Source of the DNA: an uncultured Gemmatimonadota bacterium
GTDB lineage: Bacteria; JAAXHH01
Direction: 5' to 3'
DNA length: 64,000 nt
Assembly (NCBI GenBank): GCA_951812955.1
Contig: OX638340.1
Location: forward strand, 384,001 to 448,000
Part shown: positions 4,244 to 32,952 of the stretch, one piece after another
Numbering within the stretch: position 1 is the first letter of the stretch
Layout: each line of letters opens with the position of its first letter
Made by a program: the position numbers and the translations under genes
The notes under the pieces: generated by a model
The model's input: only the letters and a program-made list of their open reading frames with translations
Databases searched by the model: none
What the model was told of the DNA's origin: nothing

Positions 4244-5731
4244 ATGACCCACGGGACAGAGGTTTCAGTGGCTCATCCGGCCGTGGCCTTGGCGGATGCT
4301 TCTCCGACGGTGGCCCTGCATACGCTCGGCTGCCGTCTGAATCAGTACGAGACCGAGGCCATTCGCGAACAGTTTGTTTCCCGGGGCTTTCGCGTCGTGC
4401 CCTTCAACGGTCCCGCGGATGTCTACGTCGTCAATACCTGCACGGTGACGAACCAGGCCGACGCGCGGGCCCGGCAGACGCTTCGCCGGGCCGTGCGTCG
4501 CCGGTCCGAGTCCATCGTCGTAGCGACGGGCTGTTACGCCCAGACTCATCCAGAACAGCTTCTGGCAATCGAAGGCGTTGACCTCGTCCTCGGCAACGCG
4601 GAGAAGGGCGGGCTCGTCGACCGCGTGCTGAGTTTGCGCGCGGACGATCCGCCTGTTTCCCAGGTGACGCGGCGGGCGGAGATGTCGCGATTCGACGAGC
4701 GTCTCGACGTTTTCGCCTTCGAGGACCGAACACGGGCTATGCTGAAGCTCCAGGATGGTTGCGACCAGTTCTGCTCGTTCTGCATCATACCCTGGGCCCG
4801 CGGCCGTCACCGCAGCCTGCCTCCGGACACCGCGCTGCGCCAGGTCCATTCCCTGATAGACAGAGGTTACGCCGAAATCGTACTCACTGGCGTTCACCTC
4901 GGTGAATACGGTACCGATCTGCCCACGCCCGTCACGCTAAATTCGGTCGTCCGTCAGATCCTGGAGCAGACCGGACTGCCCCGCCTGAGGTTGAGTTCTA
5001 TCTGGCCCACGGCGGTGAACCGGGAATTGATCGATCTGCTCGGGAACCACGCGCCGAGACTGTGCCGTTACACGCACCTGGCCGTGCAACATGGCGACGA
5101 CAGCCTGCTGCACGCCATGCGCAGGACGTATACGGCCGGTCAGGCCGAGGACGTGGTCTGCCGGCTCGTGGACGCGGTGCCCGATATCTGTATCGGCGCT
5201 GACATCATGGTCGGGTTCCCGGGGGAGACCGACGCCTCCTTCCAACGTATGTACGACTGGTTGGACCACCTTCCCTTCGCCTATTTCCACGTGTTTTCCT
5301 ATTCCAGGCGGGACCATACCCGGGCGGCACGCATGCCGGACCAGGTGCCCCCTTCGACGGCACGGGAACGCAGCCAGTTGCTTCGGACGTTGAGCGATCG
5401 GAAATCAGCGGCCTACCACAGCCGTTTCAGGGGCAGGGTCCTGCCCGTACTGGTCGAGGATGAATACAGTGGACCGCCTGGTCCGCCTGGTCCGCCTGGC
5501 CCGGACGGCCAGGTCGGCGCGCACAGTCCGGACGACCTGTCTGGCCCGCACAGTCCGACTGGCCCGCACGATCGGGGCATGACGGGGAGAACGGACCACG
5601 GTCTCAGATGCTGGTTCGATGGGCGGGCAGAGCAGGTGAACACCTTCGTCGAAATGGAAGTGTTGTCGACCGACGCCCGGGGTGCGGCCGGCAGGCTTAC
5701 GGAACCCGTCGACAACCCTGAAATGGATTGA
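4244..5731 (+). CDS. mtaB: Radical-SAM methylthiotransferase (MtaB/MiaB family) with a low-complexity insertion in the TRAM domain
   Basis: MTTase N-domain (LGCRLNQYETE). Radical-SAM core CxxxCxxC (DGCDQFCSFCIIPWARG). The C-terminal TRAM region is interrupted by GPPGPPGPPGPDGQVGAHSPDDLSGPHSPTGPH. Confidence 0.8.
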   Translation: MTHGTEVSVAHPAVALADASPTVALHTLGCRLNQYETEAIREQFVSRGFRVVPFNGPADVYVVNTCTVTNQADARARQTLRRAVRRRSESIVVATGCYAQTHPEQLLAIEGVDLVLGNAEKGGLVDRVLSLRADDPPVSQVTRRAEMSRFDERLDVFAFEDRTRAMLKLQDGCDQFCSFCIIPWARGRHRSLPPDTALRQVHSLIDRGYAEIVLTGVHLGEYGTDLPTPVTLNSVVRQILEQTGLPRLRLSSIWPTAVNRELIDLLGNHAPRLCRYTHLAVQHGDDSLLHAMRRTYTAGQAEDVVCRLVDAVPDICIGADIMVGFPGETDASFQRMYDWLDHLPFAYFHVFSYSRRDHTRAARMPDQVPPSTARERSQLLRTLSDRKSAAYHSRFRGRVLPVLVEDEYSGPPGPPGPPGPDGQVGAHSPDDLSGPHSPTGPHDRGMTGRTDHGLRCWFDGRAEQVNTFVEMEVLSTDARGAAGRLTEPVDNPEMD

Positions 5732-5758
5732 CAGGGCTCCTCATCGCCCGTTATATTG
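5728..5758 (+). promoter_or_regulatory. Putative sigma70 promoter for tRNA-Arg (TTGACA-N17-TTATAT)
   Basis: TTGACA at 5728-5733, a 17-nt spacer, TTATAT at 5751-5756. The tRNA begins ~18 nt downstream. Confidence 0.45.
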
Positions 5759-5773
5759 CCGCATGAAAAGCTT

Positions 5774-5847
5774 GCGCCAGTAGCTCAGCTGGATAGAGCG
5801 ACGGCCTCCGGAGCCGTAGGTCAGAGGTTCGAATCCTCTCTGGCGTA
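5774..5847 (+). tRNA. tRNA-Arg (anticodon CCG)
   Basis: Cloverleaf folded by hand. Acceptor GCGCCAG/CTGGCGT; D arm GCTC-AGCTGGATA-GAGC; anticodon stem ACGGC/GCCGT with loop CTCCGGA (anticodon CCG); T arm AGAGG-TTCGAAT-CCTCT; discriminator A. No encoded CCA. Confidence 0.85.
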
Positions 5848-5896
5848 TAACCCCCGCGGATCAGCCTTCTCTGGCGTATATCCCCGCGGATCAGCC
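5838..5896. repeat. Tandem direct repeat (29 + 28 bp) duplicating the tRNA 3' end (att-like)
   Basis: ctctggcgtataacccccgcggatcagcc (5838-5866, begins inside the tRNA) and ctctggcgtatatccccgcggatcagcc (5869-5896). Confidence 0.8.
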
Positions 5897-6640
5897 CCGC
5901 CCTCCTGCCTGGTCATCATCGTCTTCTTCGCCAAGGTAAAGTTCGTTTTTCAGCAGATAACTTACCGTGGATGCATACCAACGGGTTTCCCTTGAAACCG
6001 CCGATGCACGTTTGGTGGGCACCTTCTGCTCATTGAGTTCATCCGCGATCTTGCGCAGGCTCCTGCCCTCGGCCCGCCAGTGCTTCACCTGCCTGATGAT
6101 CTCCTGCTCCCTTGAGTTGGGCACCAGCTGATTGCCGGACAGGTCGTATCCGTAAGGGATCGCGCCGTAAACGAACCGGTTGTTCTTTTTTTTCCGTATC
6201 CAGTTCTTCGTCCGCTCGGCGGGCAGGTCGCGGGCCAAACCGGCCAGCACGTTGAGCGTGCTCAGCACCACCTTCCCCTGTTCCTGATCGGTGCGGATGG
6301 ACATGCCATCGAGATCCAGCACGTGGCATATGATGCCTGCGCCGGACCAGGCCCCGAGGCAACCCGACATTTCGGCCGCTGACCTGAACAGCCGGTCGAG
6401 TCGCCAGATAACGATATGCTGGATGCCCTTCGATTCAACCGTGTTGGCCAGGTCCCGGCCACCCAGCCGATCCTCGAGCGGGATGAACGCCTCGACTCGG
6501 ATGTCGGGAATCACCAGCATGATGTCGAGGTCGTTTTCCGCGCAGTAGGACCTGAGCCGCTTCTCCTGGTCGGCCCTTCGAAAGGGATGCTTCCGGGTCT
6601 CCATCGGACCGACCCTGATATAGCATACCGCCTTTTTCAT
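5891..6640 (-). CDS. Truncated, degenerate serine recombinase (resolvase domain plus recombinase domain; catalytic Ser replaced by Gly)
   Basis: 249 aa. N-terminal MKKAVCYIRVGPME aligns to the serine-recombinase YxRVSTxxQ motif, but here it reads RVG-P. Resolvase-type LDRLFRS and recombinase-domain GAIPYGYDL are present; the zinc ribbon and coiled coil are missing. The stop codon lies inside att-like repeat B. Confidence 0.6.
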   Translation of the reverse strand: MKKAVCYIRVGPMETRKHPFRRADQEKRLRSYCAENDLDIMLVIPDIRVEAFIPLEDRLGGRDLANTVESKGIQHIVIWRLDRLFRSAAEMSGCLGAWSGAGIICHVLDLDGMSIRTDQEQGKVVLSTLNVLAGLARDLPAERTKNWIRKKKNNRFVYGAIPYGYDLSGNQLVPNSREQEIIRQVKHWRAEGRSLRKIADELNEQKVPTKRASAVSRETRWYASTVSYLLKNELYLGEEDDDDQAGGRG

Positions 6641-6887
6641 CTGGCGTCTCCCGGACCGTCTGGACCATGCCTTTTTGATGTCTCTTTAATTACTAAACAT
6701 ATTTTGTGTCTTTTCCCGATCCAAGGACTTTTTCGAAGCCGGCAGTGAAGGGGTCGGGAATCGACGTAAAACTTTTTGCTTGCTTGGTTTAATATGCCCC
6801 CATATATTAGAGCGGTGCTGCAGAAGTGGGCGAAGTAGTGCCCGCTTTTTTTTATGTGTTTTTCGTGCTGAAACTCGAAAATGCGCG

Positions 6888-7370
6888 ATGGAAACTGACC
6901 GTGATTCAATCCTTCGGAACGTCTCGTCACTCGCCAGGCCGATCGTCGACGAAGCCGGGTTCGAATGGGTGGAAATGGAACTGGCGGGTAGGCAGGGCAG
7001 TTTCGTCCTCAGGCTGCTGATCGATAAGCCGGGTGGCGTCACGATAGACGACTGTGTGGCAATCAATCGCGAATTGTCCAGCCTGCTCGATCAGGAAGAT
7101 CCCATTCCATCCCGCTATACGCTCGAAGTCTCTTCACCTGGCCTGGACCGGCCGTTCAAGACGGAAAGAGACTACCGGAAAGCCGTCGGTAAACGGGTAA
7201 AGGTCGTAACCGTGGACGACGACGGCGGGCAGGTCACCCGGATAGGGTGGCTCGAAGGCATTGAGGACGGCACGGTTGAAATCGTCTGTGGCGACGTAAA
7301 ACATCGTATTTCCGTCGCAAGCATCAGGAAAGCCCACCGGGAACTGGATCATGGATGGGAGAACGGTTAG
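6888..7370 (+). CDS. rimP: Ribosome maturation factor RimP
   Basis: METDRDSILRNVSSLARPIVDEAGFEWVEMEL...LEVSSPGLDRP is the RimP signature. The internal ATG at 6888 was chosen; the upstream part of the track ORF lies in AT-rich non-coding sequence. Confidence 0.85.
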   Translation: METDRDSILRNVSSLARPIVDEAGFEWVEMELAGRQGSFVLRLLIDKPGGVTIDDCVAINRELSSLLDQEDPIPSRYTLEVSSPGLDRPFKTERDYRKAVGKRVKVVTVDDDGGQVTRIGWLEGIEDGTVEIVCGDVKHRISVASIRKAHRELDHGWENG

Positions 7371-31812: not shown

Positions 31813-32808
31813 TTACTTCTTCTCTTCGATCCAGCTCATCATGCTGCGCAATTGACGTCCGACCTCCACGATCTTCTTCTCCGACGCATTGCGTCTGAGC
31901 GCGTGCATGACCGGGGCGTTGGCCTGGTTCTCGAGCATCCATTCCCGGGCGAAGGCGCCGGACTGGATCTCGGCGAGAATGCGTTTCATCTCGGCGCGGG
32001 TCTCTTCGTTTACGATCCGCGGACCGCGGGTCAGGTCGCCGAATTCGGCCGTGTTGCTGACGGAATAGCGCATGCCTTCTATGCCGCCCTCGTACATCAG
32101 GTCCACGATGAGCTTCAGTTCGTGGAGACACTCGAAGTAGGCGATTTCGGGTTGGTACCCGGCCTCGACCAGGGTCTCGAAACCGGCCATGACGAGTTCG
32201 GACGTTCCGCCGCAGAGCACGGACTGTTCACCGAACAGGTCGGTCTCGGTTTCTTCCCGGAAGGTCGTTTCGATGACGCCGCCGCGGGTGCCGCCGATGC
32301 CCTTGGCATAGGCCAGGCCGATATCCCGGGCTTTGCCCGTGTGGTTCTGGTTGACCGCGAGCAGGCAGGGTACGCCGCCGCCTTCCTCGAACACCCGGCG
32401 CACGAGATGCCCCGGCCCCTTGGGCGCGACCATGAAGACGTCCACGTTATCGGGCGGGACGACCTGGTTGAAATGGATGTTGAACCCGTGGGCGAAGGCG
32501 AGGGCGTTGCCCTCTACCAGGTTCGGCGCCACGTAATCGTTGAATAGACGCGACTGGAGTTCGTCGTTGACCAGCATCATGATAATGTCGGCTTCGGCGG
32601 CCGCTTGTTCCACGGTACGGGGCTCGAATCCGTCCTTGACGGCCTGATCCCACGAGCCACCCTTACGCAGTCCCACGATGACGTCCAGTCCGGAATCGCG
32701 TAGGGAAAGTGCGTGGGCGTGTCCCTGGCTGCCGTAACCGACAACCGCGATGGTCTTGCCGTCCAATATGCCCAGGTCGGCGTCCTGATCGTAATACAGT
32801 CGAGCCAT
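31813..32808 (-). CDS. ilvC: Ketol-acid reductoisomerase
   Basis: 331 aa; [17 protein letters not shown] Rossmann motif. RBS GAAGGAGAA. Confidence 0.95.
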
Positions 32809-32820
32809 TGGTTCTCCTTC

Positions 32821-32952
32821 GTGCCGGACCGGCGTTCAGGCGAGGTCGGCGGTGATCATTTGGCGTGCCAGACCGGCGTTCAGGCCGGGTCGGCGGTGAT
32901 CATTTGGCGTGCCGGTCCGGCGTTCAGGCCAGGTCGGCGGTGATCTTCTTGC
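32821..32952. repeat. 3 x 44-bp tandem repeat; copy 3 is the ilvN 3' coding end
   Basis: gtgccggaccggcgttcaggcgaggtcggcggtgatcatttggc / gtgccagaccggcgttcaggccgggtcggcggtgatcatttggc / gtgccggtccggcgttcaggccaggtcggcggtgatcttcttgc. Confidence 0.85.

Follow-up and report, generated by a model that had tools for sequence, protein, structure and literature searches.

A conserved short serine recombinase homologue lacking the nucleophilic serine beside rimP-nusA-infB in an uncultured Gemmatimonadota lineage

The gene between tRNA-Arg(CCG) and rimP

The stretch of DNA analysed here (64,000 nt of an uncultured Gemmatimonadota bacterium, GenBank assembly GCA_951812955.1, contig OX638340.1, positions 384,001 to 448,000 of the forward strand; hereafter the window) carries a gene related to serine recombinases between tRNA-Arg(CCG) and the rimP-nusA-infB operon. 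An initial annotation, made from the letters alone, had described it as a 249-amino-acid (aa) open reading frame (ORF) on the minus strand, with the GAIPYGYDL motif of the recombinase domain and glycine in place of the nucleophilic serine, and had read it either as the fossil of an integrated element or as a domesticated DNA-binding protein. Both the position of the gene and the motif were confirmed; the ORF is uninterrupted (5891..6640, minus strand), and the N-terminus of its protein is MKKAVCYIRVGPME.

The protein matches Pfam Resolvase (PF00239) over residues 4-153 with 58.9 bits (curated cut-off 23.3), and Recombinase (PF07508) over residues 178-238, the latter covering only profile positions 3-57 of 102; a Pfam search of the 249-aa protein gave no match to the zinc ribbon PF13408. 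In the AlphaFold2 (AF2) model (mean predicted local distance difference test, pLDDT, 88.6), a mixed α/β catalytic fold (residues 1-119) leads into a long αE helix (120-153); residues 154-238 correspond to the N-terminal half of the recombinase DNA-binding domain, and the last residues (239-249) form an acidic, disordered tail. The top structural matches identified with Foldseek were the Bxb1, SPβ and TP901-1 serine integrases (E 6e-13), with a TMt of 0.89 and a root-mean-square deviation of 2.0 Å to the TP901-1 catalytic domain; a profile match to phrog_95 integrase (E 2e-32) and a sequence match to γδ resolvase (E 3e-4) were also found. Scores against the NCBIfam models for XisF and CcrA/B/C were far under the cut-offs, a PADLOC defence-system search returned no match for the ORF protein or for two relatives that retain the serine, and no paralogue was found within the window. 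The features that characterize large serine integrases (complete Recombinase domain, PF13408, coiled coil, and a length of 400-700 aa) are absent.

A search among 5.8 billion proteins gave 155 homologues. The 120 that were listed are all short, with full-length members of about 224-278 aa and most of 230-255 aa. Family members that retain the catalytic serine (hereafter Ser-bearing) are about 233 aa long, and also have neither a zinc ribbon nor a coiled coil. Because the Ser-bearing homologues are equally long, the ORF protein is not truncated, and its length is a family trait rather than the result of shortening a large serine integrase. The initial annotation was therefore right about the missing zinc ribbon and coiled coil, which the whole family does without, but not in treating their absence as a truncation.

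In an ungapped alignment with 87-89 Ser-bearing homologues, the nucleophile column is occupied by Gly11 in the ORF protein (YIRVGP vs YIRVST), which bears out the proposed Ser-to-Gly replacement. Across 120 clusters this column holds Gly in 31, Ser in 86, and a gap in three. Distant homologues (35-47% identity) carry the canonical YIRVSTEEQ; homologues of at least 45% identity carry YIRVGP, or YIRVGS in one sub-branch, with the exception of P0034 (47% identical), which keeps the serine. The 31 Gly sequences form a single clade in a neighbour-joining tree (hereafter the Gly clade), nested within the Ser-bearing family and with P0034, the gene for which does not adjoin rimP, as sister. As to a nucleophile elsewhere, which the initial annotation had named as a refuting finding, no Ser, Thr, Tyr, or Cys is conserved in the loop across the Gly clade (e.g. 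GPMETR, GPEEER, GPQDGA, GPLELD). Judged by its nucleophile position, the ORF product would be a serine recombinase homologue and not a functional recombinase. A profile search of 1.84 billion representatives gave 353 clusters at E <= 1e-30, and among the best 150 of these 353 the sole full-length Ser-less sequence outside the Gly clade is P0249. This is an unrelated, second independent degenerate member of the short family, with Ser replaced by Thr at the nucleophile together with D82A, R83H, R86C, and R143Q.

A locus survey using one genome per species identified the gene in 24 species-level metagenome-assembled genomes (MAGs), which carry the NCBI labels Gemmatimonadetes or Candidatus Latescibacterota, and many of which are sponge or coral bins. 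The ORF is intact (241-257 aa) and adjoins rimP in divergent orientation in all 24, and the order S1-MtaB-tRNA-Arg(CCG)-ORF-rimP-nusA-infB is kept in 21 of the 24 loci. The same arrangement was found on two further deep-branching contigs recovered via homologues and on 12 of 12 metagenomic contigs recovered by their rimP-leader pattern; relatives with the leader and without the ORF, as the pre-acquisition state, were sought among these contigs and none was recovered in the 12 matches. NusA identity is at least 69% within the clade and at most 59% outside it. Two outgroup loci (NusA 54-56% identical) are without the gene and have proS and M28 peptidase as rimP neighbours, at a distance too great to reveal a gene-free tRNA-Arg-rimP junction. 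Rather than the patchy presence typical of integrated elements, the gene occurs in every genome of the clade that was sampled, including two (L022 and L024) in which it no longer stands beside tRNA-Arg and is still conserved. In L022 (4094-5682), the recombinase homologue is separated from tRNA-Arg by genes for a receiver-domain protein, the start of which overlaps the ORF stop, and for a pentapeptide-repeat protein.

Divergence of the ORF protein follows that of the core genes: RimP identity falls from 93% to 48% in parallel with the ORF protein (97% to 49%), and the pairwise divergences of the ORF protein and NusA are correlated (Pearson 0.96, 276 pairs). The ratio of nonsynonymous to synonymous substitution rates (dN/dS; Nei-Gojobori, 210 pairs) has a median of 0.18 and reaches 0.26 at most. 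At Gly11 all four glycine codons are used (GGT 9, GGC 12, GGA 2, GGG 2), and therefore glycine itself has been maintained through synonymous turnover; R9, R83, R86, and R143 are likewise written with several synonymous codons. These comparisons indicate that the gene is intact, vertically inherited and under purifying selection beside rimP-nusA-infB across the whole lineage.

Residue comparison of 31 Gly-clade with 87 Ser-bearing sequences shows where the constraint has moved. Positions that are near-invariant in the Ser-bearing family and altered or relaxed in the Gly clade include S11 (S11G), T12 (T12P), Q15, G19/V20/S21/L22, the G48/S50 loop, E136, and many positions of αE; position 136, the equivalent of E118 in γδ resolvase, is Ala in the ORF protein. 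An SG or AG loop is still present in the deepest Gly branches, and therefore the erosion of these motifs came after the loss of the nucleophile. R9, D82, R83, R86, E142, and R143, which correspond to R8, D67, R68, R71, E124, and R125 of the γδ resolvase active site, are kept. For pairs at 35-60% overall identity, the Ser-bearing family is most conserved in αE (66%), followed by the catalytic domain (59%) and the DNA-binding domain (43%); in the Gly clade the order is inverted, with 60% in the DNA-binding domain, 46% in the catalytic domain, and 40% in αE. Crown-group dN/dS values are 0.14 for the catalytic domain, 0.27 for αE, 0.145 for the DNA-binding domain, and 0.65 for the acidic tail. Such an inversion would be expected if catalysis and synapsis were dispensable and all orthologues recognized one fixed DNA target.

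Flanking DNA: tRNA-Arg junction and rimP control region

The initial annotation had taken repeats at the ends of the gene for att-like sequences. The ORF protein does end within a repeat, as had been stated: the stop codon (5891-5893) lies in the second copy of a 30-nt tandem duplication (5837-5866 / 5868-5896), the first copy of which includes the final 12 nt of the tRNA (Table 1). Both copies lie on one side of the gene, with no flanking pair. L001 shares the duplication with the window, whereas L002, the protein of which is likewise 97% identical, and most other loci lack it. It is a lineage-specific slippage product or scar and not an att pair. The 8-nt sequence TCTGGCGT does occur near both ends of the gene (5839-5846, 5870-5877, and 6640-6647; one copy had been placed one base off), at a frequency no different from chance (three in the window vs 2.55 expected). 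Two of the three copies are the tandem duplication itself, and the third, which overlaps the start codon, differs from relative to relative (CATCTGGTGT, CATCCGGCGC, CATTTTACGC, and others). A check of GACTAAACA for enrichment in the window was also negative.

In most orthologous loci tRNA-Arg adjoins the ORF stop; the gap is 42 nt in the window and 12-15 nt in most relatives, the latter being the ancestral distance, and the spacer is weakly conserved. Between the ORF stop and tRNA-Arg, L003, L006, L009, L010, L012, L015, L018, and L023 have the stop-codon region in two to five tandem copies (units such as CCCCGGTTCAGYCC), and the junction looks to be a recurrent, slippage-prone hot spot of small tandem duplications. 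In L021 (5717-6710) the ORF end is abutted by only the 3' half of tRNA-Arg(CCG), followed by a tyrosine integrase gene (5961..6710, minus strand); therefore tRNA-Arg(CCG) is a live integration site, and the ORF lies outside that element.

On the other side of the gene, GC content drops to 0.455-0.465 over 6600-6900, against about 0.6 around it. This AT-rich segment, which the initial annotation had noted correctly and attributed to the tail of an element, is shown by an alignment of 21 relatives to be a native control region and not part of an inserted element, holding the putative ORF promoter, the putative rimP promoter, and a known attenuator. A near-invariant block (6693-6733) encloses the putative ORF promoter and is followed by a variable 5' untranslated region; the putative rimP promoter and leader form a second block (6770-6853), which is conserved even where the rest of the spacer is unalignable, including in lineages with 49-55% identical orthologues. 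A consensus promoter scan called neither promoter, and the -35 hexamer of the ORF promoter matches the consensus at three of six bases. The rimP-leader motif has been described as a GGGc...gCCC terminator stem with a U-stretch in the 5' leader of rimP-nusA-infB (Naville and Gautheret, 2010, PMC2965389), and the hairpin before rimP fits it. In an Rfam scan of 5600-7100 the sole matches were the tRNA and, by chance, a snoRNA; the rimP-leader motif, which is very short, gave no match at E <= 1.

Table 1. Features of the locus in window coordinates, from the tRNA-Arg promoter-like site to rimP.
Feature	Position	Strand	Basis or comment
tRNA-Arg promoter-like site, TTGACA-18-TATATT	5728..5757	+	11/12 consensus matches; context, outside the gene
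tRNA-Arg(CCG), convergent with the ORF	5773..5848	+	ARAGORN; Rfam tRNA 69.3 bits
30-nt tandem duplication	5837..5896	.	Tandem Repeats Finder (TRF): period 30, 2.0 copies, 93% matches, score 106
ORF, 249-aa nucleophile-less short serine recombinase homologue	5891..6640	-	ORF list, Pfam, alignment, AF2
Shine-Dalgarno-like GGGAGA, 6 nt before ATG	6647..6652	-	CTCC core invariant in 21 aligned relatives
Putative ORF promoter: TTGGAT (6719-6724), 17 nt, TATGTT (6696-6701)	6696..6724	-	Conservation
Variable GC-rich dyad between the divergent promoters	6734..6765	.	Sequence varies in relatives, dyad character kept
Putative rimP operon promoter: TTGCTT, 17 nt, TATATT, with T-rich upstream element	6780..6808	+	Conservation
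rimP-leader attenuator: hairpin GTGGGC-GAAGTAGT-GCCCGC, then T8	6826..6853	+	35 nt before the rimP ATG; kept in all loci
rimP, first gene of rimP-nusA-(L7Ae-like)-infB	6888..7370	+	Divergent from the ORF; Pfam RimP_N/RimP_C on orthologous neighbours

Additional repeats were noted in and near the control region of relatives. In the ORF-rimP spacer of L019, the 10-bp sequence CAAGACTAWW occurs as three direct repeats shortly before the rimP promoter; a related sequence, AGGACTAAAC, is located at -10/+1 of the ORF promoter in the crown group (window 6691-6699) and is tandemly duplicated in L018. CAAGACTAWW and AGGACTAAAC could be a candidate protein-binding site.

Two repeat arrays were observed elsewhere in the window. 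In the 3' part of mtaB (5470-5557), 9-nt tandem repeats (TGGTCCGCC) encode PPGPPGPPGP, and the same 9-mer array is expanded in the 5' untranslated region of the orthologous gene in L003 (about 4900-4995); it looks like a lineage-specific minisatellite that is mobile or slippage-prone. At 32820-32945, the spacer between ilvC (31813..32808, minus strand) and an ilvH/ilvN-like gene holds 2.9 copies of a 44-nt unit (92% matches, TRF score 224).

Origin, proposed role, and alternatives

Three Ser-bearing relatives that were examined in context (L027, L028/L029, and L030/L031) are all located in integrative elements, and a small HTH_17 gene (60-65 aa) comes directly after each of them, with genes for a tyrosine integrase, a large serine integrase, or Prim-Pol/AlpA nearby. 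A Ser-bearing short recombinase plus HTH_17 is a conserved module of integrative elements. In one of these loci, a 576-aa large serine integrase comes after the HTH_17 gene. Other Ser-bearing homologues are encoded on small plasmids of Oscillatoria, Polaromonas, and Picosynechococcus. The ORF of the window has no HTH_17 partner, and its neighbours are core genes. A filamentous phage is known to be integrated at the 3' end of tRNA-Ser by φRSM Int, a small serine recombinase whose gene lies beside the att site (PMC3816273). Because of the mobile-element relatives and this precedent, it is plausible that the ancestor of the ORF came from an element once located at the 3' end of tRNA-Arg.

We consider it moderately probable that the ORF protein is a domesticated, catalytically inactive, site-specific DNA-binding protein derived from the short serine recombinase family. 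The ancestral gene would have arrived with a mobile element, which probably lay directly ahead of rimP, at the 3' end of tRNA-Arg(CCG). Replacement of the nucleophilic Ser by Gly would have come early in the lineage, with the other catalytic and synapsis motifs eroding afterwards, while selection would have continued to act on the fold, on the core that forms the dimer, and most of all on the C-terminal DNA-binding domain. The protein may thus form a resolvase-like dimer that binds a single fixed DNA target and leaves it uncut, as do recombinases in which Ser was changed to Ala or Gly in the laboratory and the resolvase subunits that occupy accessory res sites. The likeliest targets would be in its own locus, namely the control region shared by its own promoter and the rimP promoter/leader, or a remnant of the att site at the tRNA-Arg 3' end, and binding there could result in autoregulation and/or modulation of rimP-nusA-infB; the DNA binding, the target, and the regulatory output are inferred. 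Of the two readings offered in the initial annotation, the domesticated DNA-binding protein is the one supported by the conservation of the gene and the shift of constraint. A bolder version, about which we are rather doubtful, is that a dead serine recombinase was recruited lineage-wide as a cis-acting regulator or DNA-looping factor of the near-universal rimP-nusA-infB operon, acting on top of the NusA/rimP-leader attenuator, or as a guard of the tRNA-Arg att site.

Several observations weigh against a domesticated DNA-binding role at this locus. R9, D82, R83, R86, E142, and R143 are nearly invariant in the Gly clade and are not obviously needed for simple DNA binding, so that some residual chemistry, or an engagement resembling synapsis, keeps a small probability. 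Of the non-coding DNA, the rimP promoter/leader alone is conserved clade-wide, as would be expected without this protein, and the 6693-6733 block has no convincing dyad and is unalignable in the deepest lineages. A search of the spacer for a protein-binding site, using inverted and direct repeats, column conservation, and shared 8-mers over eight divergent lineages, supported no dyad or res-like site; only the two promoters and the rimP leader stood out. The adjacency to rimP could also be historical rather than functional.

The conserved arginines, aspartate, and glutamate are also an argument that the protein is still catalytic, using another nucleophile (Ser12 in some species, or water, as a hydrolytic site-specific nickase) or acting in trans with an active recombinase. 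The occurrence of Gly-Ser for Gly-Pro at positions 11-12 in seven species would agree with this, and selection on Gly itself would fit a need for space at that position. We nevertheless regard continued catalysis as distinctly improbable, given that the loop has no conserved Ser, Thr, Tyr, or Cys, that T12, Q15, the S50 loop, E136, and the αE activation/tetramer region are eroded (αE being the least constrained), and that no partner recombinase is encoded within the window. The opposite extreme, that the gene is the decaying fossil of an inactivated, C-terminally truncated integrase from a prophage or island at tRNA-Arg, drifting towards loss, is scarcely credible. The adjoining tRNA 3' end, the lost nucleophile, the mobile-element relatives, and the tRNA-derived repeat beside the stop codon are all features that such a remnant would show; the fossil reading is refuted because the full-length protein is widely conserved under purifying selection, with intact ORFs in all 24 species-level genomes, a median dN/dS of 0.18, constant synteny, synonymous turnover at Gly11, divergence that follows NusA, Ser-bearing homologues of equal length, and a repeat that is lineage-specific and does not flank the gene.

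Two further alternatives concern the role of the protein. As a site guard or decoy, the dead recombinase would cover the ancestral tRNA-Arg att site or form inactive heterodimers, thereby blocking re-integration of related elements beside an essential operon. This proposal, which we think unlikely, agrees with the ancestral position 12-15 nt from the tRNA 3' end, with the capacity of small serine recombinases to use tRNA 3' ends as att sites, with the use of tRNA-Arg(CCG) as an integration site in the clade (L021), and with the DNA-binding domain being the most conserved part of the protein. However, an element with a tyrosine integrase did enter tRNA-Arg next to the gene in L021, so that protection would at best be family-specific; the gene is conserved in L022 and L024 although it is away from the tRNA; and the spacer from tRNA to stop codon is poorly conserved. 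Little probability attaches to a role not involving DNA, in which the fold would be a scaffold for a protein-protein or RNA-related function tied to the neighbours (tRNA-Arg, MtaB, RimP, NusA, and IF2). The constant place of the gene within a translation/transcription gene cluster and the clade-specific acidic disordered tail could be accommodated by such a role, but conservation is highest in the helix-turn-helix-like recombinase domain, with its WYASTV..LL.N motif common to DNA-binding serine integrases, and the gene is monocistronic and divergent from its neighbours, and is not co-transcribed with them.

Enzymes of mobile elements are well known to have been exapted where they are active recombinases, Hin, Xer, and the developmental excisionases being examples. 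Literature searches for a natural nucleophile-less or catalytically dead serine recombinase under selection returned nothing relevant, and the serine recombinases listed in a review are all active (PMC8987985). If the role as regulator or att guard proves true, this would be, as far as the literature searches show, the first described natural serine recombinase turned into a non-catalytic DNA-binding factor. The locus provides a clean natural case of a recombinase becoming a pseudo-enzyme, with a datable order of events (Ser to Gly first, followed by erosion of the SG loop, E136, and αE), and the shift of constraint to the DNA-binding domain can be measured. It lies at the control region of an operon that is among the most conserved in bacteria, and many MAGs of the clade are associated with sponges and corals. 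The main result is corrective: the gene is not a prophage remnant, and its AT-rich tail is an ordinary attenuator region of a kind already described. Practical value will be modest until the target is found.

Comparison with known systems

The attenuator before rimP in the window has the same GGGC...GCCC stem and U-stretch just upstream of rimP-nusA-infB as the known rimP leader, an identification that is based on the published motif and on position. φRSM Int resembles the ORF protein in being a small serine recombinase encoded beside a tRNA 3' end, and provides a model for the arrival of the ancestor; φRSM Int, however, is an active enzyme of a mobile prophage, whereas the gene of the window is immobile and not surrounded by an element, and its product lacks the nucleophile. 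The large serine integrases (Bxb1, SPβ SprA/YokA, TP901-1, and φC31) share the catalytic fold, αE, and the first half of the recombinase domain with the ORF protein (Foldseek matches 9iu2, 9dxh, and 3bvp), but are 450-620 aa long and possess the complete recombinase domain, a zinc ribbon, a coiled coil, and the nucleophilic Ser, extras that are absent from the protein of the window.

In the regulation of res and tnpA-tnpR in the Tn3 family, a serine recombinase dimer binds the control region between divergent genes without cutting, and a paper on the Sin complex reportedly illustrates the architecture of such regulatory subunits. By analogy, the Tn3/γδ resolvase in its capacity as repressor or accessory-site subunit may be a functional counterpart of the proposed role, the likeness being that of a non-cutting dimer in a divergent control region. 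The resolvase has kept its enzymatic activity and has a simple helix-turn-helix as C-terminal domain; at the locus of the window catalysis appears to be lost, and the spacer searches gave no res-like site array.

The short Ser-bearing recombinases (for example P0036, P0071, and P0118) are close counterparts, with the same length and two-domain architecture, 35-50% identity to the ORF protein, and R9, D82-R83, R86, E142-R143, and the motifs of the DNA-binding domain in common. These relatives keep YIRVSTEEQ, the HTH_17 neighbour, and the element or plasmid context, whereas the protein of the window has Gly at the nucleophile position, is encoded at a constant place in the chromosome, carries an acidic tail, and shows the inverse order of domain conservation.

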